The position numbers and the translations under genes are program-made. Below, in pieces: positions 4,788 to 62,305 of a stretch of 64,000 nucleotides of DNA. This stretch comes from a phage. The first letter of the stretch is position 1. Every line of letters begins with the position of its first letter. The DNA lies in assembly GCA_025611195.1 (NCBI GenBank), contig GCA_025611195.1_4718.2; one strand, 5' to 3'. The notes beneath the pieces are model-generated. The model saw only the letters and a list, made by a program, of their open reading frames with translations. It searched no databases and was not told where the DNA came from.

Positions 4788-4811
4788 GAGGGGGTATTAT
4801 CCCACCCCCTC
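4788..4811 (-). terminator. GC-rich hairpin (GAGGGGG / CCCCCTC) after gene 4822..5355
   Basis: 7-bp inverted repeat with 10-nt loop just downstream of the minus-strand stop. Confidence 0.5.
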
Positions 4812-4821
4812 GCAGGGATTA

Positions 4822-5355
4822 CTACTTAACGATCGCGATGATTTTGCCGCTCGCACCGGCGTAATATGCTGTTAATTCACCAGTAAACAACTCTTGTAAA
4901 AGACGATTTACGTGACTAACAAAGTTAGGATTGTCTGATTTTACAAACTCGATATTGCGCGTTTGTTTTATATCACGATCGATTAAACGGATTTCCAACA
5001 ACGCACAAATAAGGCGATCGTCGAGTTCACCACTCGCATCCAGCACTTCCCCATACTTCGTAGCACGGACGTCCGCATACATACGGTCAACATCATCCTT
5101 CCCAAAACCACAGGAATAGGCATACGTTGCGATGGTGTTACCATTGTCCATCACATAAACGTTACCACCTGGGTAATCGATAAATCGTTGATCCTTATCA
5201 CCATGAGCGACGAACTCCAGTGTCGGTCTACCCATCGAATCACGGTTGAATTCAATTGTGGTCAAGCGATCTGGTACCACATGCAACGTAAATGGTTTCG
5301 CATTGTTACGATCGCTAGTATCGCAGTTGCCCATTACTTTTACAATAACACTCAT
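4822..5355 (-). CDS. hypothetical protein, paralog of 4187..4735
   Basis: Tandem paralogy visible in translation (see 4187..4735). Confidence 0.55.
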   Translation of the reverse strand: MSVIVKVMGNCDTSDRNNAKPFTLHVVPDRLTTIEFNRDSMGRPTLEFVAHGDKDQRFIDYPGGNVYVMDNGNTIATYAYSCGFGKDDVDRMYADVRATKYGEVLDASGELDDRLICALLEIRLIDRDIKQTRNIEFVKSDNPNFVSHVNRLLQELFTGELTAYYAGASGKIIAIVK

Positions 5356-5429
5356 GTTTTATTCCTTAGTAGTCCTAGTAGTAGTATTGAGGAATAGCAC
5401 CTCATTAGATAGTCTATTTTGGTAATGAT

Positions 5430-5729
5430 TTACTGAAACAGGACATTAAACTCGACGAGATACCCATCGGATCTATCACCACGATATCTGTTGCAGAAAA
5501 CACCGAATTTCATCAAGAACTCACATAACTCTTCGGCTTTGTATAACGGAATACGATTTTCGTCGAGCAGAGGACACATATGGCTAACCAGCTCCGACGA
5601 ATCAACGCAACACAAATAAAGAAGGAACCGAACAATAGCTCGGTTCTTAGTGAAGCTCTCGAATTCACCTGCGGTTCTGAACTCATCGAGGAGCTTTGTC
5701 GTTTTCTTCAATCGTTCACGATCAAGCAT
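5430..5729 (-). CDS. hypothetical protein (99 aa)
   Basis: ORF track; ATG at 5729. Confidence 0.45.
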   Translation of the reverse strand: MLDRERLKKTTKLLDEFRTAGEFESFTKNRAIVRFLLYLCCVDSSELVSHMCPLLDENRIPLYKAEELCEFLMKFGVFCNRYRGDRSDGYLVEFNVLFQ

Positions 5730-5751
5730 GTTAACCTCAATACGAACATAA

Positions 5752-5783
5752 CCCTCCTCCGACCCATCAGGGAAGGAGGAGGG
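5752..5783 (-). terminator. CCCTCCTCC / GGAGGAGGG hairpin between minus genes
   Basis: 9-bp inverted repeat 5752-5760 / 5775-5783 just downstream of the stop at 5793. Confidence 0.5.
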
Positions 5784-5792
5784 AATATGCTG

Positions 5793-6107
5793 TTATTTTG
5801 TTTTAGGTGTTGAACCGTTCTTCTTGAAGTCGGATTCGTATTTCACGTTAGAATCGAGAACCTCACGAACGGTTTTATCCGTACAGCCACGAGCGATGTA
5901 TGCATTAAGATCATCACGTAATTTACGCATTGTTGTTTTATCCGCATCAGAAATATCTGACTTGGTAAGACGGAATGCAATTGCGTCACGGATTTTATTC
6001 AGCGTCGCTGGGTTAATACGCTGTTCTGCAAATACCGCTTTGATGAACTTATCGCTATCTTTCGAAGCGACGGCAGCATCAAGAATCTCAATATGCTTTT
6101 CAGACAT
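5793..6107 (-). CDS. hypothetical protein (104 aa)
   Basis: ORF track; basic/acidic mixed small protein. Confidence 0.45.
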   Translation of the reverse strand: MSEKHIEILDAAVASKDSDKFIKAVFAEQRINPATLNKIRDAIAFRLTKSDISDADKTTMRKLRDDLNAYIARGCTDKTVREVLDSNVKYESDFKKNGSTPKTK

Positions 6108-6163
6108 CTTCTTTCCTTTAATAAACGATCATCGTCATATTCATTGCGCAGGGTACTATCACT

Positions 6164-7387
6164 TCAGTAGCTTAGACATCCCGTGCTACGCGCCAACGCA
6201 ACGTCATATGCATCCATGATCGCATCACCGATAGCGGTATGACGAATCAACGGAATACCCATGTCTGGATACTCTTTGGTACCTAAGATGGATACCGGTT
6301 TGTCTTGATACGCGGCAATCATCGAACGGATATCCTGAACCTGGTTATAACGACAAACTGGCTTAAAGCCTGCTTTACGGAACCAATGTTCTAATTGAGG
6401 CCAATCTGTTTCACCGCGAGCAAGATAATAGAAGGTATCCTTACCGTAGTATTCGGTCATCTCATCACGGATATTGTTAACAAATGCATTTACTGTAGCA
6501 ATGGCTTCTTTATAGTCCATCACTCCGACATGCTGAAAACAATAGTCGCGCGCTTCCTTCGGTGCTTTGGTTTGCCACCATTCTACCGTGGACTTACTAA
6601 TATCACCGCCATCAGCGATTTGACCGTAAACGTCAGGGAAGATATCTATACGTGGACCGTTAATAACAGATTCTGGATTAGCTAGATCAAAGAACAAGAT
6701 GCCGATTTCCAGCAGTACCCCGTTCTTTTCCAGACTGAGATTCTCCACATCCAGGCAAAACGCAGGTTTCTCTACCGCTGAAAAATCAAAATATTCTTCG
6801 AGGCGCGGCGTTGGTTCGGCGGCGAAAAACGTCTCATGAATGAACTGGGCGAATGTCTTATTCTCTGCTACTAAGTCAATACCCAATTTACTTAGCAGAG
6901 GTATAATTGCACGGTCGTTGTACTCCATTACCACCAACTCTTGGCTTTTGATAGAACGACCAATTGAGTAAAAAAGATGAACGATATCTAACGGTTTGTA
7001 CGGAGCCTCAAAAGTTGTTCCCTGGAACGACTCAGCCAGCGCCTTATGCGTTTCTTCACGATGATTCATCAGTTGGAAAATAGCACAGCGCAGATAATGC
7101 CGTAATGTTATCTCGTGAAGGTGTGATGTATCTTCCTGAAATAACGTCATGAAACCGTGATATGTATAATACTCGCCTCTTTGAATTTCTTCGAGGAGTT
7201 CTTTGTCCCCATTTATTTCCTCTGGTGTTATCGGTTCGATTTGATCATGGATAATATTGAGCAGGTCACTGCCGTGTACCTTAAACAGTTTTTCAACGCT
7301 AAAATCGGGTAATGTCGCAATTGCTGCGTACATTAATGTTTCTGCGGGATTAAGTTCTTTATTGTCAATTGTGATGGTTAAAGCCAT
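6164..7387 (-). CDS. putative DEDDh (DnaQ-like) 3'-5' exonuclease domain protein
   Basis: C-terminal part has FCLDVENLSL (D.E) and HTAIGDAIMDAYDV (H.A..DA) motifs; start moved to ATG at 7387 (MALTITID) with GAGGT RBS. Confidence 0.55.
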   Translation of the reverse strand: MALTITIDNKELNPAETLMYAAIATLPDFSVEKLFKVHGSDLLNIIHDQIEPITPEEINGDKELLEEIQRGEYYTYHGFMTLFQEDTSHLHEITLRHYLRCAIFQLMNHREETHKALAESFQGTTFEAPYKPLDIVHLFYSIGRSIKSQELVVMEYNDRAIIPLLSKLGIDLVAENKTFAQFIHETFFAAEPTPRLEEYFDFSAVEKPAFCLDVENLSLEKNGVLLEIGILFFDLANPESVINGPRIDIFPDVYGQIADGGDISKSTVEWWQTKAPKEARDYCFQHVGVMDYKEAIATVNAFVNNIRDEMTEYYGKDTFYYLARGETDWPQLEHWFRKAGFKPVCRYNQVQDIRSMIAAYQDKPVSILGTKEYPDMGIPLIRHTAIGDAIMDAYDVALARSTGCLSY

Positions 7388-7412
7388 TTTATTATACCTC
7401 ATCGAAATCAAA

Positions 7413-7754
7413 TTAGTTAAATTCAGGTTTATCAGCAGCCAGACCAAGTCCAGCCAGTATTACGTAATCATACCAAGCTTTTACTTTTGCTTTCGCTTCA
7501 TCTAAACTATCTGCGTTGATGTGCGGAAACTCATCGTTGACTGGGAAAGGTAAATCGCAGTCGTAGCTTGTATAGTCTTTCCAACCTTTCCATTCGATAG
7601 TTAGAGAACCAAAAACGGTCTCAGCAACAACGTGGTTATAGCGACATTCTTCACATGGCGTACGCTCTTCCGACCAAACAAGCTCGTGCTGTGCTAAAAG
7701 TTGTTGTACGACCGATAATGGTTGCTCTTCATTAAGTTCGATACTGTCTATCAC
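7413..7754 (-). CDS. hypothetical protein (113 aa)
   Basis: ORF track. Confidence 0.45.
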   Translation of the reverse strand: MIDSIELNEEQPLSVVQQLLAQHELVWSEERTPCEECRYNHVVAETVFGSLTIEWKGWKDYTSYDCDLPFPVNDEFPHINADSLDEAKAKVKAWYDYVILAGLGLAADKPEFN

Positions 7755-8347
7755 TGTATACCCTCCTTTTCCTTATCGTAATTACTACACATATTGACAA
7801 ACGCAGTATTATCAGACAGCATGCTAACCATCTGACGGATTGCGTCCAACGGTTCAAGTTTAGGATTGATTGATTCACCGGTCAACGCGCTTATTGCTCG
7901 TGTGATCTCAGCCAAATCAACGTTCGGGTCTTTATCATCAATGATGAGCAGACTCTTCGCCGGTTTCTGACGACGTTTGATGATTAACAAATACGTGACA
8001 AGGTTCTCACGCCAAGCGTCAGAATCCAGATTGCGTATCAGGGTTAACGCACGACGTTCTTCCGCCCATGATGGTTTCTCACGGATAACGGGCATGTAAG
8101 ATAATTGCTCAGCAAGCCCTTTCAAACTGACACGGTTGGTGCCACCAGGATGCTCACTAATCCGCAACATCTCGGTTAACAGACGGACATATGCGGTTGT
8201 TGTAGAAACACCCCGCAGCGGCAGGAACAAATTATGTCCCGGAACCCCATCATGACTCAGCGGTGCGATATACGCCATGAATTGACGGATATCGTCATCG
8301 GTCTGTTCTCCAGCAACGAACTTAAACGCTTCACGTAGAACGCTCAC
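7751..8347 (-). CDS. hypothetical protein (198 aa)
   Basis: ORF track; 4-nt overlap with downstream gene. Confidence 0.5.
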   Translation of the reverse strand: MSVLREAFKFVAGEQTDDDIRQFMAYIAPLSHDGVPGHNLFLPLRGVSTTTAYVRLLTEMLRISEHPGGTNRVSLKGLAEQLSYMPVIREKPSWAEERRALTLIRNLDSDAWRENLVTYLLIIKRRQKPAKSLLIIDDKDPNVDLAEITRAISALTGESINPKLEPLDAIRQMVSMLSDNTAFVNMCSNYDKEKEGIQ

Positions 8348-8633
8348 TACGAAGTCTCCTTAATGTTTCTTTTATATGCAATCTCTTCGGCAAGTACAGA
8401 CGTTTGTACAGATCAACTAACAGATAACGCATAACGGAAGCAACCACCAGGTATTCGCCTTCAGCTTCCGAATAGCGTATCATGTTAATCGGGTAATTCA
8501 AATAAGAATAAGAAAAGAGATCATCATTGGTGAGGCGATGATCTTCAAGATACTGACGAAACAATTCTGCTAAGGCATCGTACTCCATTCCGTAGTAACA
8601 CAACGATACCTGTCTTACCGACAGTCGTTTCAT
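8331..8633 (-). CDS. hypothetical protein (100 aa)
   Basis: ORF track. Confidence 0.4.
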   Translation of the reverse strand: MKRLSVRQVSLCYYGMEYDALAELFRQYLEDHRLTNDDLFSYSYLNYPINMIRYSEAEGEYLVVASVMRYLLVDLYKRLYLPKRLHIKETLRRLRSERST

Positions 8634-9472: not shown

Positions 9473-9487
9473 ATCAGGGCTCCTTTG

Positions 9488-10710: not shown

Positions 10711-10721
10711 CTTCCTCCATG

Positions 10722-11243: not shown

Positions 11244-11298
11244 TCTTTTCGATTCCTATTAAAAGTGACCGATTTCTGTGGTCAGGATTGCTAATACA

Positions 11299-11760: not shown

Positions 11761-11807
11761 GTCCTATACGAACACGAAAAACCGTTAATTTTTACCTTGA
11801 TTGCGTG

Positions 11808-12121: not shown

Positions 12122-12139
12122 CCCTCCCCGAAGGGAGGG
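12122..12139 (-). terminator. CCCTCCC-CGAA-GGGAGGG hairpin
   Basis: 7-bp perfect stem, 4-nt loop, immediately downstream of the stop at 12150. Confidence 0.5.
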
Positions 12140-12149
12140 CGGTTAATGA

Positions 12150-14048: not shown

Positions 14049-14077
14049 CTCCTCCCCACACCTTTCCTGGGGAGGAG
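14049..14077 (+). terminator. 10-bp hairpin (CTCCTCCCCA / TGGGGAGGAG) followed by TTTTAT, in the 5' leader of the helicase gene
   Basis: Perfect inverted repeat with 9-nt loop then T-run on plus strand; no plus-strand gene upstream. Confidence 0.4.
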
Positions 14078-16198: not shown

Positions 16199-16227
16199 AA
16201 GCTCTGCCTGATGTCAGGCAGAGCTTT
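16199..16227 (+). terminator. rho-independent terminator after helicase gene
   Basis: AAGCTCTGCCTGA-TG-TCAGGCAGAGCTTT: about 12-bp stem followed by T-run, 6 nt after the stop. Confidence 0.6.
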
Positions 16228-17762: not shown

Positions 17763-17795
17763 CTTCCTCCCTACCCATAACGGGCGGGGAGGAAG
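17763..17795. terminator. bidirectional hairpin (CTTCCTCCC / GGGAGGAAG) between convergent genes
   Basis: 9-bp inverted repeat between the plus-gene stop (17744) and minus-gene stop (17813). Confidence 0.55.
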
Positions 17796-19056: not shown

Positions 19057-19078
19057 AAGGGCCTGCTTCGAGGCCCTT
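19057..19078. terminator. hairpin AAGGGCC / GGCCCTT with T-run on plus side
   Basis: 7-bp inverted repeat, 8-nt loop, followed by TTGATTTTTTGATT. Confidence 0.4.
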
Positions 19079-23319: not shown

Positions 23320-23433
23320 AATCTCATTTCCTCTTATACGTTCGGATAGATGACATGTTGGATATACGTTGCCTTTGCATATATTGCTTTATTTCCGTCA
23401 GAAATAACGGAAAATAAAAACAACGACATAGTT

Positions 23434-23463
23434 CCCTCCCACCTCCACATGGGAGAGGGAGGG
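23434..23463 (-). terminator. CCCTCCC / GGGAGGG hairpin
   Basis: 7-bp stem (extendable with mismatches), downstream of the stop at 23477. Confidence 0.5.
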
Positions 23464-24216: not shown

Positions 24217-24294
24217 ACCAGGGATCCTCTTTAAGTCTTCACATTCTAGTGTTAAGCAGTTAAAATAAACCGTCCCTTTAATCAGCATAAACAT

Positions 24295-24323
24295 CCTCCT
24301 CCTACCATGCGGGCAGGAGGAGG
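24295..24323 (-). terminator. CCTCCTCC / GGAGGAGG hairpin
   Basis: 8-bp inverted repeat between stop of 24335..24748 and start of 23866..24216. Confidence 0.5.
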
Positions 24324-27318: not shown

Positions 27319-27347
27319 CCCTCCCACAGCGTAAAGCGTAGGGAGGG
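27319..27347. terminator. CCCTCCC / GGGAGGG hairpin between convergent genes
   Basis: 7-bp stem with 15-nt loop between plus stop 27313 and minus stop 27379. Confidence 0.55.
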
Positions 27348-27378: not shown

Positions 27379-28659
27379 TCAGAAACGATTTACAGTACGT
27401 CCTGTCCACGCACTCAGGATGTTGTTACGTTCCATCTCAGCCCGACGACGTAAACCGTTTGGCGACTGCGGTGCTGGCGGCATCCCCCACCCAGCAGGCT
27501 GCATACCCATACCAGGCCAAGCGGTATTATTGAACATCGTGCCGTTACGTTCCGCGACACGATTCATCAACGCATCAAACGTGCTATTACCTGCCGGTTG
27601 GTTACCACCACTTTCCCACTGATTAGGTTGAACAGGTGCGGTTTTACCTAACAGGTTATCAATCACGTTACTTGTTGCAGCAGGACGCGGTTGCATACCT
27701 TCATGTGCAGCTGCTGATGGATTTGGCTTAACCGTCGGCTGCGGACGACTGTTCAGCGTTACACCCATGTTGTATTTCGCTGGTGGAATCTGACCACGAT
27801 GTTGGGTAATCGGCTCAAAATCCTCGACCCAGGTAACATCGCAATAACCGTTCTCTTTACCGTCGTACTTATCACCAAACAGTTTGATGAGATTGTTCAG
27901 CGGTTCCATCAGCTTCGCGAAGCTGTGGATAAGACAATCGAAATAGGGAGCATGAGGATCGCTTGACCCAGCATTATACGTTTCACTTACTTCACCGGAG
28001 TGAGGGATAACGTACTCAACCAGGTTTCTCAGCATGTTAAGATCTTTCTTGGAAATCTCAACACCACACCAGTACGTTTTCTTATCTTTCGTGCTGATGT
28101 GTTCCTCTTCCATGAACGGGAAAGTAACTACCGCAACACGGGTCATCTTCTTACCCATGTAGGTTGCGCCGGTACGACGAAGATAAATTTTAGACAGCGT
28201 ATACGGTGTGTCGCGTTTCAACCAAACGGTAACCAGTTTGCCCAGGGTCGTTAATGTTTTATCGCTGGCGTCCGCAAGGATGTTGAAGAACTCTTTTTGC
28301 TTCGGTCCGAAACGTTTTGCTTCTTTAGGGTTGATTGCGGTTTCAACCATCCAAATCAGCATAGAACACAGCGTGGCGTTAAAACGAACAACCATCGCGC
28401 GACGCAGGAACTGAAGTACTTCCGATTCGCCGTTCATCACGTCTTCACTTAACGGATGGAACAACACGCGTTCAGCTAACTGGTTTCCGGTACGAACTTC
28501 GGGAACCGGCATCAGCAACGGCATGCTTTCCACGGTAGCGGCAACTGCAACAACTTTACCATCCCCATCCGTAAAACGATATTCTAATTCGTGGGCATCA
28601 TTCTCAAAATAGTTAACGCTTTGCAGCGCTTTGCGATAAGCTTCAATAAGCTTCGACAT
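27379..28659 (-). CDS. hypothetical protein (426 aa) with Pro/Gly/Met-rich low-complexity C-terminus
   Basis: ORF track; C-terminal GMGMQPAGWGMPPAPQ low-complexity tail. Confidence 0.5.
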   Translation of the reverse strand: MSKLIEAYRKALQSVNYFENDAHELEYRFTDGDGKVVAVAATVESMPLLMPVPEVRTGNQLAERVLFHPLSEDVMNGESEVLQFLRRAMVVRFNATLCSMLIWMVETAINPKEAKRFGPKQKEFFNILADASDKTLTTLGKLVTVWLKRDTPYTLSKIYLRRTGATYMGKKMTRVAVVTFPFMEEEHISTKDKKTYWCGVEISKKDLNMLRNLVEYVIPHSGEVSETYNAGSSDPHAPYFDCLIHSFAKLMEPLNNLIKLFGDKYDGKENGYCDVTWVEDFEPITQHRGQIPPAKYNMGVTLNSRPQPTVKPNPSAAAHEGMQPRPAATSNVIDNLLGKTAPVQPNQWESGGNQPAGNSTFDALMNRVAERNGTMFNNTAWPGMGMQPAGWGMPPAPQSPNGLRRRAEMERNNILSAWTGRTVNRF

Positions 28660-28687: not shown

Positions 28688-28708
28688 GGTCCCCCACAAC
28701 AGGGGACC
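28688..28708 (-). terminator. GGTCCCC-CACAACA-GGGGACC hairpin
   Basis: 7-bp perfect stem, 7-nt loop, just downstream of the stop at 28715. Confidence 0.55.
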
Positions 28709-36662: not shown

Positions 36663-36692
36663 GTCCCTCCCCACCCGAAGGTAGGGAGGGAC
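36663..36692 (-). terminator. GTCCCTCCC / GGGAGGGAC hairpin
   Basis: 9-bp stem, 12-nt loop, downstream of the stop at 36704. Confidence 0.55.
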
Positions 36693-37288: not shown

Positions 37289-38104
37289 TTAACGTGTTCT
37301 CCTATCACGATGCGTATACGACTGAAGACCGATGTCCATATGCGGTAACGTCAGCGTCTGCCAGATCTGTCGTGCGTAGCGATCGAGTGTATGGTCGTCA
37401 GTAACACAATCGACTGGTTCGATGAGGTGAGTCGTATACTGGCTTTTCTCGGAGAAAGGTTCGATGTTAGCGGTGTCCCCTAATCCGCTTTTCACCGTGA
37501 AGACGAGACGGGTAATTATCATCGCCTTATGCTGCTGTTCATTATAGCGAAGGCTACGATATACAGCATAGCTCCCCCCTTTTAGGCTTCGGGTATAACG
37601 AAGGTCGGAGGTCGTCTCGGAAATCTGATACAACATCCAATCCAACGTATCACGCCAGTACGCATCATCCACATCAGGAACCGTGATGCCATAACGCGTA
37701 GGCAGCAGTTCTAAAAGCAGTTTATAAAGTCCACGACGCAGACCATGCTCTTCTGTTTCAGACAAACCGTTTCCAACGTAACGTGAGATACGCGTACGTA
37801 AATACGTACGGATGAACATATTTGTCATCAGTGATTTCGCGCTACTACTGTTATCCTCAAAGCGATCAACACTGAAACTCGTTTCAATCAGCTGCCCATT
37901 AAAGTACAATGCGGCAACATACATCGCATTACTGCTATCTCGTTCAATGTTTAAACGCCCGCAGATATTGGCTGCGTCGTTCATGGTAAATTCTAACTTA
38001 TCGTGTTCGATACGGTAAATAATATCCTCTTGGGTTGCTAAGCTCGCAATGCGACGATAACCCGGAGAAGTGCGTTTTACACCCATGATTGTCCTCGTTT
38101 TCAA
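37289..38104 (-). CDS. hypothetical protein (271 aa)
   Basis: ORF track. Confidence 0.5.
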   Translation of the reverse strand: MKTRTIMGVKRTSPGYRRIASLATQEDIIYRIEHDKLEFTMNDAANICGRLNIERDSSNAMYVAALYFNGQLIETSFSVDRFEDNSSSAKSLMTNMFIRTYLRTRISRYVGNGLSETEEHGLRRGLYKLLLELLPTRYGITVPDVDDAYWRDTLDWMLYQISETTSDLRYTRSLKGGSYAVYRSLRYNEQQHKAMIITRLVFTVKSGLGDTANIEPFSEKSQYTTHLIEPVDCVTDDHTLDRYARQIWQTLTLPHMDIGLQSYTHRDRRTR

Positions 38105-38126
38105 TTTAAGATTGCGTGCGGCATAG

Positions 38127-38153
38127 ACCCTCCCCGCCTTATGCAGGGAGGGT
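38127..38153 (-). terminator. ACCCTCCC / GGGAGGGT hairpin
   Basis: 8-bp stem, 11-nt loop, downstream of the stop at 38168. Confidence 0.55.
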
Positions 38154-39064: not shown

Positions 39065-39740
39065 TCGCTACCTCATACCCGCAGCTTTACCTGCAGCTTC
39101 CGGTGTTACCGGAATGTCCAGAATACATCTTATCCATATTCCAAATGGAACGTAGGACTTCCGCGCTGGATCTCGCTTGAGACCACGTATTCGTTGAACG
39201 TTCTCCTGAACGGAGCTTCGCTGCTGATCGAACATTGTCGTGTACGGTAGGCATCCCCGAAGGGATTGTCATTGAAGCCGCGTACATCCGCTACCTTGTT
39301 TCTACCTTATCGGTTCCTCTTACGAGGCGTAGCGGCCTTAGCCCTTCCCAGCAATTCACGGAATCCAAGCTCTTCCTTTCGGAAGGCAGGGCCTATGATT
39401 AAGCATCCCCGTCGCTGTTATCGACTATATCTTCATCCTCGTTGCGAGGAGTCTCCCGTTTGGGTCTGTGTTTAACAGAGCCTACTCTACTCAACATCGC
39501 GTCTTTCGATAGTCTGTGAGCACACATCTTAACGAACATTCGTGGATTCCTAAACAGGTGAACGTTCTTGTTGAGATGCTTCGCTGCGGATTATTCCCGT
39601 CCTACCTCTTTTACCGTACCCAGTTCATTACGCTGGCCCTCATCTATGTCACCATGATGAGTTGGTGTGTAGTCCGATTACAGAAACTTCCCGTCAATTA
39701 GAGAGTTTTAACTACGTTCCTGTTACCAGAAACCAGATCC
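39065..39740 (-). ncRNA. group I intron-like element B (approximate boundaries)
   Basis: Minus strand carries Q-like AATCCGCAGCGAAG (39592-39579), R-like GCTCACAGACTATCG (39521-39507) and S-like GAAGATATAGTCG (39433-39423); no long ORF. Confidence 0.5.
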
Positions 39741-39814
39741 CGACGGTATCAATAAATCAACGTAAGTTATTGATTTAATTGAAAAACTGAAATCTGCATT
39801 ATCTAAATCTTCAG

Positions 39815-40185
39815 TATGGTTCGCTACTCCATACCCGTACCTCATGTACTGCTTACGTCTTTCACGTAAGGATAGACTATATCTTTCACCCTCAGCATTA
39901 TCTGGTCGGGGCTCCCATTTCGGCGGTCAGATGACCGGTGGTTTCCCACGCCGCTTGGCCCTAACGCCCGTAAGCGATAGTCGTTGAGCACATCTCCGTT
40001 CTGGAGACTTCGCTGCGGATTCCCCAATCCTTGCCGCTTTTACCGTACCTGAATGATTAGTTCAGCCCCACGCTCTGTTCCCAGGCATGGTTGGTGGACG
40101 AGGCTCTAAGTAGGTTCCCGCATTAGAGAGTTCCTCGTAACAACATTTCTGCGTTACTGGGCCTAACGACCCTTTCAAGATCATC
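39815..40185 (-). ncRNA. group I intron-like element A (approximate boundaries)
   Basis: Minus strand carries P/Q-like GGTAAAAGCGGCAAGG...AATCCGCAGCGAAG (40044-40008), R-like GCTCAACGACTATCG (39987-39975), S-like AAAGATATAGTC (39885-39875) and a P9-like hairpin CTTACG-TGAAAGA-CGTAAG. Confidence 0.55.
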
Positions 40186-41411
40186 ACGCTTAACCCGATG
40201 GTGTTATCCTGCGGATCGCGTTTAACCTTGGTGATTTCAAGACATTGGTTACTGCTTCGGTCAAGTGATGGGTTTCGAACAAAGCCGCACACAATCCCAT
40301 CGAACGGTGTATCAGCAATAAGCTCATCATGCAGCTCGCTCATCATCGGATGATAATTACGGACATGTTCCGCAACGAACGCACGTGCTGCTCTCGGTGA
40401 ATAACCGCGATGGAATAACTTGGATTGGATATGTTCTTTATTGGTTAAAGTAAATGGTGCGTATGGGAAATGCAGATGATAATAACGATGGTTCGCTGTT
40501 ATCGAACTGATTACGGTACGCGTGGTGAATGGATGTAATGTACCTAATATGTTTTTACGCGTGATACCTTTCTTCTTACCGATGAACTCATCGAAAATCG
40601 CCGCGTGGTATTGCAGCAGCTTCAATTGCACTTTCGCCATCCAGTTTTCTTTCTTTCTGGCGCTCAAAGGTGTTGTTGGATGATAGATACTATTCAGTGT
40701 ACCAATAGCATCGATCGCACCTTCCATTTTGCTATCTGCATAACGGCCGGTCGGTGTATTTTCGATAACGAACATCATGGCCGCAGGAAAGCTGATATAC
40801 TGACTGAAGAACTTATCACGATGGATACGGATGAATTCTCGTAGCGTGTCAACTTTCTCTGTGTTCTTCGGTCCACGTAATGTGGGTCCTTTATACAAGA
40901 TCTCCATGATGCGATCGAAGTTCTGTATAAAGCTATTTACACCACGCCGTATCCCGAATACATCAAATTGCTGCTCCAGATAGTTCTTGAGTTCAATGGG
41001 TCGTTTTACATTTGGACGGTAACTGGCATCAATGAGCCACGTCATCGTTTCGAAGCTTTTGATATTCAACTCGCTTGCCAGCACGAGATGGACCAACGGG
41101 TTAATGAACGCATCGATTCCTTCAGGGACACGCGCCCAGACCGTCGAACGAATCTCCTGTTCTGCTGGGTAGGTTACAACCGTTTTACAGTTTGGACACA
41201 CCGTGCCGAGCAACTCACCGCGATTGTAGAAACCACAACCACATTGTGGCGTGATATCCAACGTATCGCTGGAGTAAACACGGGTGATAAAACTGTTTAA
41301 TTTCTTCTTCTCTTCGACGACTTTTGTATCGTAATCGTTCAACAAAATCGGCGTAAAGGGAAGTTCTGCGAGCTGTCTATCGAAACTCACGATATCGAGC
41401 ATGATGGCCAT
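40062..41411 (-). CDS. RNA polymerase beta-prime subunit, N-terminal portion; 3' end of this ORF probably reads into intron A
   Basis: Zn-binding CGCGFYNRGELLGTVCPNC; GKKKGITRKNILGTLHPFTTRTVIS aligns with beta-prime [24 protein letters not shown]; ORF ends before any DFDGD catalytic loop. Confidence 0.6.
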   Translation of the reverse strand: MAIMLDIVSFDRQLAELPFTPILLNDYDTKVVEEKKKLNSFITRVYSSDTLDITPQCGCGFYNRGELLGTVCPNCKTVVTYPAEQEIRSTVWARVPEGIDAFINPLVHLVLASELNIKSFETMTWLIDASYRPNVKRPIELKNYLEQQFDVFGIRRGVNSFIQNFDRIMEILYKGPTLRGPKNTEKVDTLREFIRIHRDKFFSQYISFPAAMMFVIENTPTGRYADSKMEGAIDAIGTLNSIYHPTTPLSARKKENWMAKVQLKLLQYHAAIFDEFIGKKKGITRKNILGTLHPFTTRTVISSITANHRYYHLHFPYAPFTLTNKEHIQSKLFHRGYSPRAARAFVAEHVRNYHPMMSELHDELIADTPFDGIVCGFVRNPSLDRSSNQCLEITKVKRDPQDNTIGLSVMILKGSLGPVTQKCCYEELSNAGTYLEPRPPTMPGNRAWG

Positions 41412-41453: not shown

Positions 41454-41477
41454 GGGAGGGAGGTTGCCCTCCCTCCC
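41454..41477 (-). terminator. GGGAGGGAGG-TTGC-CCTCCCTCCC hairpin
   Basis: 10-bp perfect GC-rich stem with 4-nt loop downstream of the stop at 41504. Confidence 0.6.
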
Positions 41478-44767: not shown

Positions 44768-44799
44768 CATCCTCCCAACCCGTAAGGGAAGGGAGGATG
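44768..44799. terminator. CATCCTCCC / GGGAGGATG hairpin between convergent genes
   Basis: 9-bp stem between plus stop 44748 and minus stop 44815. Confidence 0.55.
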
Positions 44800-47042: not shown

Positions 47043-47070
47043 AACCGATCCAGCCGAAGCCAGATCGGTT
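47043..47070 (-). terminator. AACCGATC / GATCGGTT hairpin followed by U-tract on minus strand
   Basis: 8-bp stem, 12-nt loop; minus-strand downstream sequence CTTTTTATGCC...CTTCTTTTTT; lies about 195 nt beyond the stop at 47265. Confidence 0.45.
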
Positions 47071-50742: not shown

Positions 50743-51063
50743 TCATTTTCTCCCTCTTCGAATACCACCGATACCTCTTCGATCCAAGACGTCCCAAGCA
50801 CGCTTTATTTCCTCCTCCGTCGCTCTGGTATCTGGAGGAACAACCATAACACAATCGTGCAACGGCCAATGCGCGGGTCTGGGGTCAGCGAACAGATTAT
50901 CCCATTCAAGCGTCCATTCTTTCTTTGAACGATTATAGTAGAGCGTAAGATACGTGTTGGTATATGCTGGGTAACCACGCATAACTTCAATATTCTTACG
51001 ATCCTGGCGTTCCTGATTCCAGTCGTTAAATCGTTTTCTTATTTTATCCCACCACTCTCCCAT
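50743..51063 (-). CDS. hypothetical protein (106 aa)
   Basis: Start moved to ATG at 51063 (MGEWWDK) with AGGAGA RBS; the track ORF extends through the upstream terminator. Confidence 0.45.
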   Translation of the reverse strand: MGEWWDKIRKRFNDWNQERQDRKNIEVMRGYPAYTNTYLTLYYNRSKKEWTLEWDNLFADPRPAHWPLHDCVMVVPPDTRATEEEIKRAWDVLDRRGIGGIRRGRK

Positions 51064-51086: not shown

Positions 51087-51106
51087 GCCTGCCCCGAAGG
51101 ACAGGC
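51087..51106 (-). terminator. rho-independent terminator (stem GCCTGTCC, UUCG loop, then UUUUAU on minus strand)
   Basis: Minus-strand GCCTGTCC-TTCG-GGGCAGGC-TTTTAT directly after the stop at 51117. Confidence 0.6.
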
Positions 51107-53242: not shown

Positions 53243-53769
53243 TTAACGACAGCTTCCTCCCTCGGTGTTTTCGAGGGAGGTATTTGCCGTTTGAACACTT
53301 TCAACACGTTCGCAAAATCAGCGGCAATAATACAGGCCGAGGTTGATAGCTTATTGCTGAAAATGAGATCGTCCGGTAAACAATCGAACTGAATACCATA
53401 TTGCGTCTTTGTCTCATCAACGATCAGTGACGGTGTCGATCCTGTCTTCGCAATATCGGTGATGTACAAACGTAAAAATAATTCACCATCTTCGCTATCG
53501 ATAAAACGATAAGCGTTACCGGAAAACGCAGCATACGGCGTAACGATAAATTGAACACGATCGTCGGTCGGGTGGATTTGTAACCAACGTGCGATATCAC
53601 CGTTACTCACATTTTGCATACGTAACACCGTGAATGCGAACAGTGTATCGTGATGCTTGGAATAATGCAGCACATACGCCGCATCTTTCTTTCTGTGAAT
53701 CCCTTCAATGTATTCTATTGTCGTGTAGCCTGATTTATATAGCTTTACTTGCGGTTTATCACTCATCAT
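53233..53769 (-). CDS. hypothetical protein (178 aa)
   Basis: Start moved to ATG at 53769 (ATGA coupling with upstream gene); 3' end overlaps the plus-gene end and contains the hairpin 53256-53280. Confidence 0.45.
   Translation of the reverse strand: MMSDKPQVKLYKSGYTTIEYIEGIHRKKDAAYVLHYSKHHDTLFAFTVLRMQNVSNGDIARWLQIHPTDDRVQFIVTPYAAFSGNAYRFIDSEDGELFLRLYITDIAKTGSTPSLIVDETKTQYGIQFDCLPDDLIFSNKLSTSACIIAADFANVLKVFKRQIPPSKTPREEAVVNQK
53256..53280. terminator. CCTCCCTCG / CGAGGGAGG hairpin at the overlap of convergent genes
   Basis: 9-bp stem, 7-nt loop, 14 nt after the plus-strand stop 53242. Confidence 0.45.
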
Positions 53770-56305: not shown

Positions 56306-56560
56306 GATAGAAATCCTTAGTATGTTTGATATGTTGTTTAATTGACATATTAAGTTTAAAAGAGGTTATGTTTTACGTATTGTTAATAACGTATTCTTAT
56401 CTCTATTAAGCTATGTTCTATCTAAAGATAGTAAACAGATATAATGCTCCCCACCTCCCCATTCTCCCAAGTAATACTGGCCTACCGGCCCTCTCCTTTT
56501 TAAGGGAGAGAGTAAGCATTCAGTATTGCTCAAATGAATAAGCAAAACAGTATAAACTTA

Positions 56561-56584
56561 CCGTCTCGAGACAACTCGAGACGG
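56561..56584. terminator. perfect 10-bp palindrome hairpin CCGTCTCGAG-ACAA-CTCGAGACGG with T-rich flanks on both strands
   Basis: Located 27 nt after the minus-strand stop at 56611. Confidence 0.6.
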
Positions 56585-56610
56585 CGTAGTGTCTGTTTAT
56601 CTCTTTTATG

Positions 56611-58096: not shown

Positions 58097-58207
58097 CGCT
58101 TTGCCTTCCGCGAGTGTAATCAGGAAGGTAATGTAGGTTTATTTTAATCTCCATTTCGCGATGATATGACAGTCTTTATTACGTTTACCATCTGAGGGAG
58201 CATGCTC

Positions 58208-59446
58208 ATGTCTTCTATTTTACAGGTGTTTAATGCGCATGCGGAAGGCATTGACATCGACGAGTATTTTGTTAATCAGGTTATCCGTTACGCGACACGC
58301 TTCCGCACGCAAGACCAAGAACACATGCGTTTTTTCGGTGGGGTTCTGTTAGGCGTGCAGAAAATCCGATTCACAACAAGACATAACGATATGTGGTTTT
58401 CCGACGTCTTGATGATGGATGAAGAAAGCTTACGACGCGATTTGAGTAAACTGCCCTTTTACAATACGCAGACCAACCGTGTTGCCTCAAACGCATTTAA
58501 CCTAAGTTGCTGCTGGTTGCTTTATGCGATTTTCCATAGCAAACAAATCAAAAAAGAAAAGGTTCGTGAGGCCGGGATGCTTGCTGCAATGCAAGTCCTT
58601 CATTATAAATTCATTTGCGGTCTGGTAGCGCGGCGTTATCCTTATAACGCCGATCCGGCTATCGCCATTAAGGCGTACGATGAGTTAACGCTCAAATCAG
58701 GTATCAAACGCATGAATAGCTGGAATGAGTACATTGACGAACGCTGTAATGCCATCATTGCGCGTAATAGTACACATTTCAGTCGTTGGTCAACCCTGGA
58801 ACCAGATAGTGTCGCCGAACGTTTTGTACGTGATGTGAATACCGGAATTCGTAAAGTTATCAACCGTATCACCGATACGTACTACGCGATGTACGAAGAA
58901 GGTAAGAAGATCGGCACGTCCTCTCAAACTGTAGAATTAGACGACGGCCTCGCTGTCCGCGATATTAAACGCAACGAAACCACGTATCGTCAATATCTGT
59001 TCGAAATCGCTTATGACCGAACAAGTTTCGTTAAACGTGAACTCATGGTCGTCATCCTCGACGTGCATCATACTACCAATCTCCTATCCCTTGAGCGAGC
59101 GTTAAGTTATATCAGCGCTAACGTAGAGCGGCCAACAAAAGACGGAAAGCAGGTCTCTCAGATGTTGCGGCTTGTAATGGAACATGCTATCGAGTATATC
59201 ATCTTGAATAAGGTCGATATGCGCGATCTTACGTTCTTATTCTACATGCGTAACGTGTATACGTCTAACCGTACCAGCAACCCGAAACTGTTAGAACTGC
59301 GTAAACTTGGCTCTGAAGTCATTAAGAAAGCAACCAACGCGAGAAACGACGCTGAAGCTGCAGCGACACGCACAGGTGTCTTTCTGTATATCCTGCTTCG
59401 GGTGTTTAGTCGCAACTATTACGTTCGTCGCGCGATGTCTCGCTAA
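58208..59446 (+). CDS. hypothetical protein (412 aa)
   Basis: GAGGGAG RBS 7 nt upstream of ATG at 58208 (first ATG at 58202 is too close to the RBS). Confidence 0.5.
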   Translation: MSSILQVFNAHAEGIDIDEYFVNQVIRYATRFRTQDQEHMRFFGGVLLGVQKIRFTTRHNDMWFSDVLMMDEESLRRDLSKLPFYNTQTNRVASNAFNLSCCWLLYAIFHSKQIKKEKVREAGMLAAMQVLHYKFICGLVARRYPYNADPAIAIKAYDELTLKSGIKRMNSWNEYIDERCNAIIARNSTHFSRWSTLEPDSVAERFVRDVNTGIRKVINRITDTYYAMYEEGKKIGTSSQTVELDDGLAVRDIKRNETTYRQYLFEIAYDRTSFVKRELMVVILDVHHTTNLLSLERALSYISANVERPTKDGKQVSQMLRLVMEHAIEYIILNKVDMRDLTFLFYMRNVYTSNRTSNPKLLELRKLGSEVIKKATNARNDAEAAATRTGVFLYILLRVFSRNYYVRRAMSR

Positions 59447-59598
59447 CAATGTAACAGTAAAACTTTACTGATGTTGGTTATTATTTGAAGCATAGGGCTT
59501 CACCCAGGAGTACCATCCCTGTAAGTCGTTTGTCCTCTCCTGGTTAACTGTCGTTCTCTCACAGTGCTCGACAGACCAAAAATGCTCAAGCCTCATAG

Positions 59599-59627
59599 CC
59601 TCCTCTGGGAATGGAACCCAGAGGAGG
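59599..59627. terminator. 11-bp hairpin CCTCCTCTGGG-AATGGAA-CCCAGAGGAGG between convergent genes
   Basis: Perfect inverted repeat, 13 nt downstream of the minus stop 59640. Confidence 0.55.
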
Positions 59628-59639
59628 ACTATGTTTGCT

Positions 59640-59960
59640 TTAAAATTCAATGCGACCCTTAGTTGTAAACAATACACCTCTTTGCCAACAGAAAAGATCC
59701 TCCGATTGAGCGCAAACACGAATACCCGCATCGAATAGATGTTTTGTTCTGGCGCTTAAACAATCTGGATCTTCTACATACAACAGAAGACGTTGGCATT
59801 TATTTTGAATGCGCTCGACAAGGATGTTCTTATCGCTTAAAATAAAATGCGCGTTATCTGTTAAGTTATCGTCGGTTTCCAGCTGCCCGACAAGTTTGAT
59901 TAAAATACGTAATTGCTCAAGTGTGTCATGATCAAATGAATCGCCCATGGCGTACCTCAA
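59640..59960 (-). CDS. hypothetical protein (106 aa)
   Basis: ORF track. Confidence 0.4.
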   Translation of the reverse strand: MRYAMGDSFDHDTLEQLRILIKLVGQLETDDNLTDNAHFILSDKNILVERIQNKCQRLLLYVEDPDCLSARTKHLFDAGIRVCAQSEDLFCWQRGVLFTTKGRIEF

Positions 59961-59993
59961 CGTTATACGTCGTTAGTATTATAATACGTTATA

Positions 59994-60021
59994 GTCTCCC
60001 CGCCGGTATTAACGGGGAGTC
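59994..60021 (-). terminator. CTCCCCG / CGGGGAG hairpin after the terminase gene
   Basis: 7-bp core stem with flanking pairs, downstream of the stop at 60034. Confidence 0.45.
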
Positions 60022-60033
60022 TGCGGACTACTC

Positions 60034-62265
60034 TTAGAAAAAACCCCCTGGTCTGTATTGGCCCATCGTCATCCACGCGTTACGAGAAATATTCCGTTCG
60101 TTCGAAGAGCGACTTATTTGACGATACGTATTCGCTCGTTCCTCCCTTGCTTTCGTAATCATTGCGTCGATAGAGACAGACGCTGAATCCTCCCCACGTA
60201 TTTTTCCTTTATAGGTAAGAAGCTCCGCCTCCAACCGATCCAAGATAAGGCCATTGGTTTCGGTCTTAAGCAGCTCATAGATTTCAGCAACGCGTTGACG
60301 TAGCTTCGCCTGCTGTTGGTTAAGATAAGCTTCATACGGATCTATTTCACCCGTCACAGATGCCGGTAAACGACTCATGACTTTAAGCGGATCGATACCG
60401 TAATGAATCTGTTTCTTAGCGCGCTTGATAAACCACATCGCTAACATCCATGCGAACGTCATGTCATCGTGCATTCCATCCTGGTGGTCGACACGCCCAT
60501 CTTTGATAACCAACCCAAGAATCTCGGAACACAGCATCTTATCGCGTAACTGCCCGCGGGTTTCTACGATACCTTCCATCAAGATGTCGGAATACAACTC
60601 CATGCGTTTGCGTGCATCCGTCGTGAAGCCCAAATGCCGTTTACGCTGAGCGTACCAACTTTCATCACGCATGCTCAACGGCAGTTTCAGGTCTTCGAAC
60701 ATTGCTGGATTATCGGCATGTCTGTCCACAATCGTGTTGTATACACGTTTGAATACGTCGATGCCTGCTTGCCGCAAGAACTCTTCAATTGCGTCTAACA
60801 ACATGATCGCACTGCTCTTACGTTCGGGAATCAACGTAACGTTCTTATAACGCATCATGAAGTTGGCCATCCAACGAGCAAAAGAAAGCAGACTCAGTTT
60901 ATTAAAACGTCCTGTCGCAACAACTTCTGCTGTTTCCACATCCACCATCACCAAACCGATCGCGTCACGACCAATCGCGTCACTGGTATCTAAACCAGCA
61001 ACCACCTTATTGTTCTGCATGTATGTCTCGATTTGACCTCGAGGTATATACCAGTTAATGCAGTAGCCTTCAGGTGAGATCTCGATATGGTCGATTTCAC
61101 GTTGTCCTGCCATGATCATCTCAACCATCTCAGCGGTTAACGGGCTTTCTGCTGAACCGTTGGTCCAAATGTTCATGTAGTCACGGTCTTTCTGAAGTTT
61201 ATCACCTTCCGTTTCGTTCATGGTTTTTGCTAACCATTCGTCACTGAATCCCAATTGAGCATGGTTCCATTGTGCCCCGATCCTGACGGTCGCTTTGCTG
61301 AGCTCGCATGGTACGTTGTTCAATACCGTCTGATGCAGATGCTTTTCGTTACGGCAGTCAAAGAAACTTTCAGAAAACGGCGCGGAACGCATGAAAACTT
61401 CATAAGCCCATTTACCCTCGCGTTTATCCAATTCACCTGCTGTTGTCGTATAGATGATACTTGTCAGGTCGCCGTTGCTTAATGCTTCATCGCGTGCTGC
61501 ACCCATCGCACCGATACCAGCAGGGACAATGATTTCGATGTATTTCGTAAACGCGGTTTCGTCGCTATGGAATATCGGGGTTGTTAGACCACGACCGATG
61601 TTTGTTGCTTGTTTCTTATCCGAACGTGGAATCTTTACCGATAACTTGTTCTTGAAACGCGTGTAGGTTACGTTCTCTTTGTTCGATGAATCACGGCTAT
61701 CCAGCGTCCAGAGATACGCAGGCAGTAGATCGCGTATACTACGCACATCTTCTACTGTTTTCGTACGGGCGTCACCGTCTTTTGTTAACTGAATAACCTC
61801 GGTGTTTCGACTACGAACATAGGTTAGATAGCAGAACAATCCTAACATGGTCATGGATTTACCCGTCTGACGTATCTGTATCTGATACCAGTTCGTTCGG
61901 GTAAATATTCCCCAGAGCATCGGAATGTTACCGCGGTTAGCACGGAACGAGATCTTGTTATCACCCGCTTTAGCCGGAACACGCATCACTTCACGGAAGA
62001 AGTACCACGGATTAAGATAGCATTCCGCACTGATCATCTGAATCTGTTCTGACGTCAAATTCGGTGCGTGGGGGTCAACACCGATTAATCTTGGGTTTAA
62101 TAACGCCATGAAAAACGCAGAGTTTCGGACACCGAATTCACGACGATACAAGATCGCTAAATCACGCCAACTTGTGTTTGTTGTTTCCCAGTGTGGAACA
62201 GCTTGAGGAAAATAATCCCAATCTTCCTCAAACAAGATGATTTTCTTCGGATCGACAATCGACAT
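60034..62265 (-). CDS. terminase large subunit (ATPase + nuclease)
   Basis: Deviant Walker A IRQTGKS (compare T4 gp17 SRQLGKT); C-terminal GLDTSDAIGRDAIGLVMVD RNaseH-like nuclease motif; 743 aa; GGAGGAG RBS. Confidence 0.6.
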   Translation of the reverse strand: MSIVDPKKIILFEEDWDYFPQAVPHWETTNTSWRDLAILYRREFGVRNSAFFMALLNPRLIGVDPHAPNLTSEQIQMISAECYLNPWYFFREVMRVPAKAGDNKISFRANRGNIPMLWGIFTRTNWYQIQIRQTGKSMTMLGLFCYLTYVRSRNTEVIQLTKDGDARTKTVEDVRSIRDLLPAYLWTLDSRDSSNKENVTYTRFKNKLSVKIPRSDKKQATNIGRGLTTPIFHSDETAFTKYIEIIVPAGIGAMGAARDEALSNGDLTSIIYTTTAGELDKREGKWAYEVFMRSAPFSESFFDCRNEKHLHQTVLNNVPCELSKATVRIGAQWNHAQLGFSDEWLAKTMNETEGDKLQKDRDYMNIWTNGSAESPLTAEMVEMIMAGQREIDHIEISPEGYCINWYIPRGQIETYMQNNKVVAGLDTSDAIGRDAIGLVMVDVETAEVVATGRFNKLSLLSFARWMANFMMRYKNVTLIPERKSSAIMLLDAIEEFLRQAGIDVFKRVYNTIVDRHADNPAMFEDLKLPLSMRDESWYAQRKRHLGFTTDARKRMELYSDILMEGIVETRGQLRDKMLCSEILGLVIKDGRVDHQDGMHDDMTFAWMLAMWFIKRAKKQIHYGIDPLKVMSRLPASVTGEIDPYEAYLNQQQAKLRQRVAEIYELLKTETNGLILDRLEAELLTYKGKIRGEDSASVSIDAMITKAREERANTYRQISRSSNERNISRNAWMTMGQYRPGGFF

Positions 62266-62276
62266 ATAAACTCCTC

Positions 62277-62305
62277 CGATGGAGGGTGCCGAGCACCCTC
62301 CATCG
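62277..62305 (-). terminator. 13-bp perfect hairpin CGATGGAGGGTGC-CGA-GCACCCTCCATCG abutting the terminase RBS
   Basis: Between stop of 62316..64000 and the terminase start; its 3' side adjoins the GGAGGAG RBS. Confidence 0.55.

Follow-up and report, generated by a model that had tools for sequence, protein, structure and literature searches.

What is the function of the G+C-rich hairpins that recur at gene ends throughout the phage DNA analysed here, a stretch of 64,000 nucleotides from contig GCA_025611195.1_4718.2 of assembly GCA_025611195.1 (hereafter the window)? The initial annotation of this DNA had described a family of intergenic hairpins with CCTCC-type and GGAGG-type arms, and had proposed that they are recognized by a phage factor or RNA polymerase (RNAP) or, alternatively, that they modulate translation or mRNA stability. 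The interpretation as sequence-specific gene-end signals in a phage with its own polymerase is right; translational control is wrong or at least unsupported. The hairpins are most likely transcription terminators, that is, 3'-end-forming RNA hairpins, of a Goslar-like chimallivirus, and they belong to the same class as the terminator motif of phage phiKZ. Each element consists of a stable G+C stem, usually with homopyrimidine and homopurine arms (CCYCCC/GGGRGG), plus a (T)TATG-Y-Y-G tail that replaces the U-tract.

The genomic setting is that of a nucleus-forming phage. A 4-kb probe from the window (60000-64000) is 95.2% identical over its full length to Escherichia phage vB_EcoM_Goslar, and the entire window aligns collinearly with 129-194 kb of the Goslar genome (94-96% identity). 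Goslar, a chimallivirus, is a jumbo phage that forms a nucleus and encodes its own multisubunit RNAPs; the homologous Goslar stretch is annotated with the nuclear shell protein, the tubulin PhuZ, DNA polymerase, terminase, and several 'RNA polymerase beta subunit' genes. Gene coordinates in the window are those of the Goslar annotation transferred through the alignment, and nearly all transferred genes are intact open reading frames (ORFs). Three window ORFs match jumbo-phage RNAP beta/beta' families in PHROGs (phrog_3015, 3295, and 2987; E 1e-113 to 1e-180), which gives the recurrent hairpins the phage RNAP context envisaged for them; a Pfam search of these subunits returned a single, uninformative sub-threshold match, and it was PHROGs that resolved them. 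The shell protein (chimallin) is ~24% identical to those of other chimalliviruses, phiKZ included. A literature search found no paper on Goslar transcript ends or promoters, nor a transcriptome of Goslar-like phages. As a separate observation, sigma-70-type promoter-like sites fell below dinucleotide shuffles in three 20-kb scans of window 1-60000 (26 vs 40.7, 21 vs 31.8, and 28 vs 37.2), a deficit that fits a genome not transcribed by the host polymerase.

The recurrence of the hairpins is real. The pattern CCTCC-N(3-25)-GGAGG has 20 matches at 16 sites, compared with 0.24 +/- 0.47 in 100 dinucleotide shuffles, the control used throughout, and a strict detector (perfect stems with a minimum of 6 bp and 4 G/C, the 5' arm being 85% pyrimidine or more) found 15 pyrimidine-first hairpins against 0.53 (maximum 2) in shuffles. 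Perfect hairpins with the purine arm first number 4, against 0.6. All 13 example coordinates of the initial annotation, together with 4788-4811, hold the inverted repeats ascribed to them, although the hairpins at 41454-41477, 4788-4811, and 62277-62305 are purine-first. That list was also incomplete, having missed 16201-16224, 47045-47068, and 51087-51106, whose stems are not of the CCTCC type and whose 3' flank is the same. One CCTCC-type match, at 50811-50839, is a weak 6-bp stem within a coding region and is probably a chance occurrence. The motif is not equally frequent inside genes, the alternative named when the family was first described: 13 of the 15 pyrimidine-first hairpins lie in the non-coding 8.6% of the window (binomial p=1.3e-12). 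They sit directly after stops, as had been stated: measured on the strand of the gene that ends there, a median of 11 nt (interquartile range, IQR, 10-13) separates stop and hairpin. The following start codon is a median of 34 nt away (IQR 21-56, range 4-130 nt). Hairpin position goes with the end of the upstream gene and not with the start of the following one. A location between convergent genes, described earlier as frequent, applies to only ~4 of ~25 elements (17763, 27319, 44768, and 53256), most elements lying between tandem minus-strand genes.

Sequence shared by these gene-end elements extends beyond the stem into the conserved flank, so that more than a common structure is involved. 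On the transcribed strand the stem is followed by (T)TATG-Y-Y-G and not by a U-tract, as exemplified by TTTATGCCGCGT (12122), TTTTATGCCGCGT (51087), CATTTATGCCGTCGT (27319, plus strand), TTATGCTGTC (4153), and CTATGCCGCACG (38127). The impression that many copies lack a clear U-tract is borne out by a run of four or more Ts within 12 nt in just 3 of 26 sense-strand instances, and a generic scan for hairpins followed by T-runs scored at or slightly above chance (19 vs 18.3, 26 vs 18.5, and 28 vs 18.2). Hairpins followed by TATG, on the other hand, number 26 where shuffles give 5.8 +/- 2.0. For the heptamer TATGC[CT]G the count is 29 (12.7 +/- 3.1 in shuffles), and all 10 of its intergenic copies come directly after a hairpin. 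Among unidirectional elements, TTAT lies within 12 nt of the stem on the sense strand in 10 of 20 and on the antisense strand in 0 of 20 (Fisher p=0.0004). The same tail follows the three stems without CCTCC arms (16201, 47045, and 51087) and is thus at least as diagnostic as the stem. These three are among only six 'putative transcriptional terminators' that the Goslar annotation records in the homologous stretch; the remaining three (4153, 4788, and 14049) are CCTCC-type or purine-first. Generic hairpin-plus-U termination does not readily account for a flank conserved across chimalliviruses as distant as their shell proteins indicate.

Either strand could fold, the arms being inverted repeats. 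Of the 19 unidirectional elements, however, 15 have a more stable fold in the sense than in the antisense RNA (mean difference -2.3 kcal/mol, Wilcoxon p=0.0006), and all four cUUCGg tetraloops are on the sense strand. These asymmetries favour a fold that acts in the sense transcript, at the RNA rather than the DNA level. Comparison with Goslar points the same way. All 25 elements compared sit at the same sites in both phages, with no presence/absence polymorphism, and nearly all substitutions are in loops, the exceptions being three stem transitions and one more change, at the foot of the 4153 stem. The three transitions (at 4175, in 24295-24323, and in 36663-36692) retain a G.U pair in the sense RNA, where the opposite strand would have C.A; as three cases, they are only suggestive of a sense RNA. 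In one element, 14049-14077 (142889-142917 in Goslar), the two phages have 9-nt loops that are exact reverse complements of each other (CACCTTTCC vs GGAAAGGTG) between identical 10-bp arms and flanks, the loop presumably having been flipped by recombination or template switching between the arms.

The assignment to a known class comes from phages in which transcript ends have been mapped. In phiKZ, Oxford Nanopore Technologies (ONT)-cappable-seq mapped terminator regions, 61 of which carry the motif 5'-BCCYCCCCHWWDGGGRRGGBYTTATKYYGT-3'; this combination of a stem-loop and a following TTAT is common to the majority of the intrinsic terminators predicted in that phage (Putzeys et al. 2024, microLife, PMC10914365). 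Copies of this motif were classed as intrinsic terminators, and bidirectional terminator regions were found between convergent genes (PMC10914365). In phage 201phi2-1, motif A (n=59) strongly resembles the phiKZ motif and RNA 3' ends map to it; eight strong terminators, picked partly for their motifs, cut the expression downstream of them when tested by terminator trap in uninfected host cells (PMC11512511). Like both motifs, the window elements join a CCYCCC/GGGRGG stem-loop to TTAT-K-Y-Y-G-T, and as in phiKZ they stand a few nt past stops, often bidirectional at convergent genes, in a chimallivirus with its own multisubunit RNAPs. The whole phiKZ-type combination of arms, tail, mostly intergenic post-stop position, and RNAP and nuclear shell genes is found in the window. 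The assignment draws on the enrichment, the position ~11 nt past stops, the strand specificity, the sequence identity with phiKZ, and the restriction to jumbo, chimallivirus-like genomes described below, the mapping of 3' ends coming from the phiKZ literature.

In direct comparison, the exact published motif, written in the degenerate code of the International Union of Pure and Applied Chemistry, has 0 matches in the window and 0 in 50 kb of phiKZ DNA. Since this string is a MEME-style consensus without an exact match even in phiKZ, the comparison rests on a relaxed pattern and on position counts and consensus. Descriptor scans with shuffles were preferred to a covariance model built from 11 phiKZ copies, for which MAFFT misaligned the copies with 4-nt loops and by which the long, variable loops of the window would have been penalized. 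The 50 kb of phiKZ DNA contains seven such sites (e.g. CCTCCCGTAATGGGAGGGCTTATGCTGTC and CCTCCCTTCGGGGAGGGCTTTATTTCGTCGT), which start 11-18 nt past stop codons. The phiKZ copy CCTCCCGTAATGGGAGGGCTTATGCTGTC and the window copy CCTCCCGTAATGGGAGGCTTTTATGCTGTC are near-identical, and the major capsid gene of phiKZ is followed by CCCTCCCTTCGGGGAGGGCTTTATG. The window element at 4153 has the 17-mer CCTCCCGTAATGGGAGG in common with phiKZ copies and the tail TATGCTGTC in common with the phiKZ copy at 28327. The tail consensus reads gttTATGc.g in the window and ctTTATGtcgT in phiKZ, about half of the window copies being degenerate. The window also differs from phiKZ in several respects: it belongs to another genus with another host (Goslarvirus, E. 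coli), and its elements are putative terminators, those of phiKZ standing at mapped 3' ends. Many window copies are longer and two-tier, with loops of 11-16 nt, whereas phiKZ loops are uniformly 4-5 nt, and a few are purine-first, unlike those of phiKZ. The two-tier design comprises, in three elements (5752-5783, 17763-17795, and 44768-44799), an outer 9-bp CCTCC-type stem, a 2x2 internal loop, and an inner CCC/GGG stem closed by a 4-5 nt loop; these look like a sub-family that is not seen among the uniform phiKZ copies.

The combination of hairpin and TATG extends to further lineages. It exceeds shuffles in phiKZ (19 vs 2.1), Erwinia phage RAY (20 vs 4.5), Xanthomonas phage LucasX (24 vs 6.4), and Klebsiella phage Eowyn (16 vs 7.4), is weakly enriched in Ralstonia phage RSL2 (8 vs 4.2), and is not enriched in Bacillus phage AgentSmith (0 vs 0.8) or T4 (4 vs 1.4). 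AgentSmith and RSL2 had been picked up as relatives through the shell protein, so the element is not found in every relative sampled. The tail consensus tTATG-Y-Y-G is identical in the five enriched lineages, namely the window, phiKZ, RAY, LucasX, and Eowyn. The order of the arms varies, with pyrimidines first in the window, phiKZ, and LucasX and purines first in Eowyn and RAY, as in GGGAGGGC-TTTT-GCCCTCCC-TTTATGCCGT, where the tail is unchanged (TTATGCCG). IMG/VR was searched with the exact pattern CCCTCCC-N(3-16)-GGGAGGG-N(0-4)-TTATG and its variants, counting distinct contigs listed. Contigs of at least 180 kb made up 30 of the 58 listed for the pyrimidine-first hairpin with TTATG, 21 of 73 for the purine-first hairpin with TTATG, and 1 of 80 for the hairpin with TTTTT, the contrasts with TTTTT giving Fisher p=3e-13 (pyrimidine-first) and 6e-7 (purine-first). 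The TTATG version thus falls on contigs of at least 180 kb far more often than the TTTTT version, and it is the tail, not the stem, that marks jumbo phages.

How might such an element halt a phage polymerase? Canonical Rho-independent terminators likewise place a G+C-rich RNA hairpin just past the gene, folded on the sense strand and with stable UUCG tetraloops; they have a U-tract of 7-9 nt, whereas the window elements have the TATG-Y-Y-G tail and homopurine/homopyrimidine arms. We envisage that the hairpin would form in the nascent RNA as the phage multisubunit RNAP transcribes through it, and that a weak UUAU hybrid, followed by a G and a G+C-rich downstream duplex, would hold the polymerase a few nt past the stem. 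A pyrimidine at -1 with a G at +1 constitutes the elemental pause of cellular multisubunit RNAPs, and the arrangement of UUAU before G resembles it. The pause may be reinforced by the beta-lobe of the non-virion RNAP (nvRNAP) gripping the non-template TATG, the tetramer bound at promoters, and release of the transcript would follow. The 3'-terminal hairpin should then shield the mRNA from 3' exonucleases, and the proportion of upstream to downstream products, such as the virion protein gp221 and terminase, would depend on how much read-through takes place. The promoter connection derives from phiKZ, in which TATG is the essential core of the nvRNAP late promoters with +1 at the G (Yakunina et al. 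2015, PMC4666361) and the non-template TATG is bound by the beta-lobe of the nvRNAP beta-like subunit GP123 (de Martin Garrido et al. 2026, PMC12809450). The window tail presents the same non-template tetramer with a G at the would-be +1. It is tempting, if decidedly speculative, to suppose that the tail is a promoter mimic: the beta-lobe pocket of a GP123 homolog would read the non-template TATG during elongation and halt the polymerase at the point where U occupies -1 and G occupies +1, the hairpin would release the RNA, and transcription could even restart at the G. If so, one protein-DNA contact would define both ends of chimallivirus transcription units, and it would be explained why TATG-Y-Y-G, and not a U-tract, is conserved from Pseudomonas to E. 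coli phages.

Several considerations weigh against reading the elements as terminators. Termination itself is argued by analogy for this phage and for Goslar, and the mapped 3' ends of phiKZ alone cannot tell termination from exonucleolytic trimming back to a stable hairpin; the pause and the promoter-mimic step are our own proposals. A clean TTAT is present in only about half of the sense-strand instances, some of the others having only TATA or TAAT, or nothing (28688 and 4788). Two elements, 14049 and 58104, lie between divergent genes, where no gene ends. Sense strands were assigned, and the 26 instances selected, partly by hand, and the genes are those of the Goslar annotation. Finally, the ATG of the terminase gene is 11 nt beyond the 13-bp hairpin at 62277, which must therefore be read through at a useful rate.

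The need for read-through is readily accommodated if the hairpins are instead RNA 3'-end stabilizers or processing barriers, at which polymerases read through and 3' exonucleases, or an endonuclease cutting at the AU-rich UUAU, leave ends at the hairpin. The stems are very stable (-14 to -30 kcal/mol), a U-tract is missing, expression of terminase requires passage through the 62277 hairpin, and the 3' ends mapped in phiKZ fit both routes. The repetitive extragenic palindromic (REP) hairpins of E. coli offer a precedent, being likewise stable, intergenic, and able to determine where the 3' ends of mRNAs fall and how far cistrons differ in stability; unlike them, the window hairpins lack the conserved REP sequence, have a conserved downstream tail, are specific to a phage lineage, and show no sign of mobility. 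The G-Y-Y-G past the stem would vanish from a trimmed RNA and yet is conserved in five lineages, which argues for recognition before or at 3'-end formation, and the eight selected 201phi2-1 terminators lowered downstream expression in the trap. Stabilization is an unlikely account of the elements, and it is compatible with termination rather than exclusive of it.

Less likely again is that the elements are promoter modules, in which TATG is the nvRNAP late-type promoter of the next gene, with the transcription start site at the G, and the hairpin merely insulates it. The tetramer is indeed the phiKZ late promoter core, starts at its G, and is bound by GP123 (PMC4666361, PMC12809450), and the resulting 5' untranslated regions (UTRs) of ~17-126 nt at tandem genes are plausible. 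In the window, though, TATG sits past gene-end hairpins, where its promoter function is putative, and it does so even with no same-strand gene next, at 17763 (both strands), 27319 (plus), and 59599, which suggests that it is not simply the promoter of the following gene. All four convergent junctions examined in phiKZ have the motif on both sides, and the well-studied phiKZ promoter P119L has no upstream hairpin. At the terminase gene, TATG overlaps the start codon, and transcription from the G would delete the start. A promoter role could be an added function at some sites, with stop and restart at tandem genes. N4-style upstream promoter hairpins were considered as the main role and rejected, because P119L has no hairpin and the elements track stops and not starts.

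The proposed role of the GGAGG arm in ribosome binding or in modulating translation has fared poorly. It would make the arm the Shine-Dalgarno (SD) sequence of the next gene, masked by CCTCC as an anti-SD mimic so that translation is regulated or coupled. SD-sequestering hairpins occur in the T4 early transcripts of e and soc and in the MS2 replicase operator, and as in these a GGAGG 3' arm is paired with CCUCC in the window, where, however, in most cases no real gene uses the arm as its SD. The geometry GGGAGG, 4-7 nt, ATG is that of an ideal ribosome-binding site and recurs. The hairpin at 62277-62305 does abut the terminase ribosome-binding site (GGAGGAG-TTTAT-ATG, start 62265), as first described, and this is the sole site where a true SD adjoins a hairpin; the ATG at 24288 (140-amino-acid ORF) is possibly a true start codon as well. 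Against this, the ATG after the stem opens a dead-end ORF of 3-43 amino acids in 13 of 16 cases, true starts stand at the variable distance of 4-130 nt given above with SD sequences of their own, the motif occurs at convergent junctions too, Eowyn and RAY have the purine arm first with the flank unchanged, and a T can follow TTAT in phiKZ, so that the ATG is lost. Translational operators are thus a highly improbable explanation. For the nucleus-associated RNA-binding protein ChmC (Goslar gp176, encoded in the window), enhanced crosslinking and immunoprecipitation (eCLIP) showed no defined motif, with binding near start codons.

The resemblance of terminators to an SD plus ATG does expose errors in gene annotation. 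Goslar gp183 is annotated from a terminator ATG, which a 1-nt deletion throws out of frame in the window, while a downstream GAGGA-N5-ATG is conserved; with the annotated start out of frame (38084-38124), the real start is probably the ATG at 38086. Goslar gp145, on the plus strand, reads through the hairpin at 5752-5783 and is frame-broken in the window (5430-5806), where a minus-strand ORF (5430-5729) is 97% conserved. Goslar gp167 (32 amino acids; window 23334-23429) begins at the ATG of a terminator TATG. The gp145 gene and the gp183 start are likely artefacts of this kind, and gp167 perhaps another.

There is, lastly, very little to commend the elements as DNA-level palindromes, be they sites for dimeric proteins, cruciforms, or mobile repeats of the REP or miniature inverted-repeat transposable element (MITE) type spreading in intergenic DNA: they are perfect DNA inverted repeats, several have partly symmetric flanks (CATA...TATG), and the inversion of one loop between close relatives is a DNA-level event, but tail and fold energy are strand-asymmetric, UUCG loops are on the sense strand only, the wobble-compatible substitutions fit sense RNA alone, loops and stem lengths vary from copy to copy, positions are locked to stop codons, and the 25 shared sites in Goslar reveal no insertion polymorphism.

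Read as terminators, the elements supply a sequence rule for the ends of transcription units in Goslar-like and other chimalliviruses: a stable hairpin plus TATG-Y-Y-G, ~11 nt past the stop. It appears that a terminator tail of specific sequence serves multisubunit RNAPs that have no sigma, alpha, or omega subunit and operate within the protein wall of a phage nucleus; very distant relatives share this tail, which matches the core of the phage promoter. As the phiKZ motif was published in 2024, nothing known is overturned and the finding is largely known; the conservation of the tail across lineages, its identity with the promoter core, and the flip in arm order are modest additions. The elements of the window are collected in Table 1.

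Table 1. Gene-end hairpin elements of the window with their 3' flanks (sense strand) and gene context; gp numbers are those of the Goslar homologs.
Position	Strand	Element	Context
2773..2790	-	Purine-first hairpin GGGTGGG-TACG-CCCACCC; 3' flank TAATACGG	12 nt past thymidylate synthase (gp141 homolog) stop
4153..4175	-	Hairpin AAGCCTCCC-GTAAT-GGGAGGCTT then TTATGCTGTC	11 nt past gp143 stop; core 17-mer as in phiKZ copies; putative terminator in Goslar annotation
4788..4811	-	Purine-first hairpin GAGGGGGT...ACCCCCTC	10 nt past gp144 stop; putative terminator in Goslar annotation
5752..5783	-	Two-tier hairpin CCCTCCTCC/GGAGGAGGG, inner CCC/GGG stem, then TTATGTTCGT	9 nt past gp146 stop
12122..12139	-	CCCTCCC-UUCG-GGGAGGG then TTTATGCCGCGT	10 nt past gp157 stop
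14049..14077	+	CTCCTCCCCA...TGGGGAGGAG then TTTTATC	Between divergent genes; 34 nt upstream of helicase gp160 start (5'-UTR type); loop inverted relative to Goslar
16201..16224	+	Hairpin without CCTCC arms, GCTCTGCCTG...CAGGCAGAGC, then TTTATGCTGCGT	7 nt past gp160 stop
17763..17795	both	Bidirectional two-tier hairpin	Between convergent gp161(+) and gp162(-); TATG next on either strand
19057..19078	-	Hairpin AAGGGCCT...AGGCCCTT; TTATAACC spans stem end (last 2 stem bases TT plus flank ATAACC)	32 nt past helicase gp164 stop
23434..23463	-	CCCTCCC...GGGAGGG then AACTATGTCG	13 nt past gp168 stop
24295..24323	-	12-bp hairpin CCTCCTCCTGCC/GGTAGGAGGAGG then ATGTTTATGCTG	11 nt past gp170 stop
27319..27347	both	Hairpin; plus-strand flank CATTTATGCCGTCGT, minus-strand flank TTATC	Between convergent gp172(+) and gp173(-)
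28688..28708	-	GGTCCCC...GGGGACC hairpin, weaker member; sense strand without TTAT	6 nt past gp174 stop
36663..36692	-	13-bp hairpin, cUUCGg loop, then T-rich tail	11 nt past gp182 stop
38127..38153	-	ACCCTCCCTGC...GCGGGGAGGGT then CTATGCCGCACG	14 nt past gp184 stop
41454..41477	-	Purine-first GGGAGGGAGG-GCAA-CCTCCCTCCC then TTATACG	26 nt past nuclear shell (chimallin) gene stop
44768..44799	both	Two-tier hairpin; TTATG 11 nt (plus) and 20 nt (minus) beyond stem	Between convergent gp245(+) and DNA polymerase gene(-)
47045..47068	-	Hairpin without CCTCC arms, cUUCGg loop, then TTCTTTTTATGCCGTCC	Upstream of DNA polymerase gene
51087..51106	-	GCCTGTCC-UUCG-GGGCAGGC then TTTTATGCCGCGT; stem not CCTCC-type	10 nt past gp235 stop
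53256..53280	+	CCTCCCTCG...CGAGGGAGG then TATTTGCCGT	13 nt past gp233(+) stop; inside 3' end of convergent gp232
59599..59627	-	11-bp CCTCCTCTGGG/CCCAGAGGAGG then CTATG	12 nt past gp223 stop; no same-strand gene downstream
59996..60019	-	CTCCCCG...CGGGGAG then ACTATAACG	14 nt past terminase large subunit stop
62277..62305	-	13-bp purine-first hairpin CGATGGAGGGTGC-TCG-GCACCCTCCATCG	10 nt past gp221 stop; then GAGGAG (terminase Shine-Dalgarno), TTTAT, terminase ATG at 62265

Further pyrimidine-first hairpins, at 56491-56510 (CTCTCC/GGAGAG) and 58104-58128 (CCTTCC/GGAAGG), are situated in long intergenic gaps with no annotated stop adjoining, and one of the two lies next to another, GGCC hairpin. 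Both may point to small genes or RNAs missing from the annotation.

An Rfam scan of the whole window returned no family at gathering score. Two minus-strand matches to the group-I-intron-like family RF00028, at 39415-39781 (46.9 bits) and 39853-40189 (29.6 bits), both score below the gathering score of 50 and are located just downstream of an RNAP beta'-like ORF (40062-41411) that covers no more of its 478-position profile than 1-414. Of these matches Goslar has the first alone, together with an HNH endonuclease gene (gp186) that the window is without, and 369 bp at window 39802-40171 are present here and absent from Goslar.

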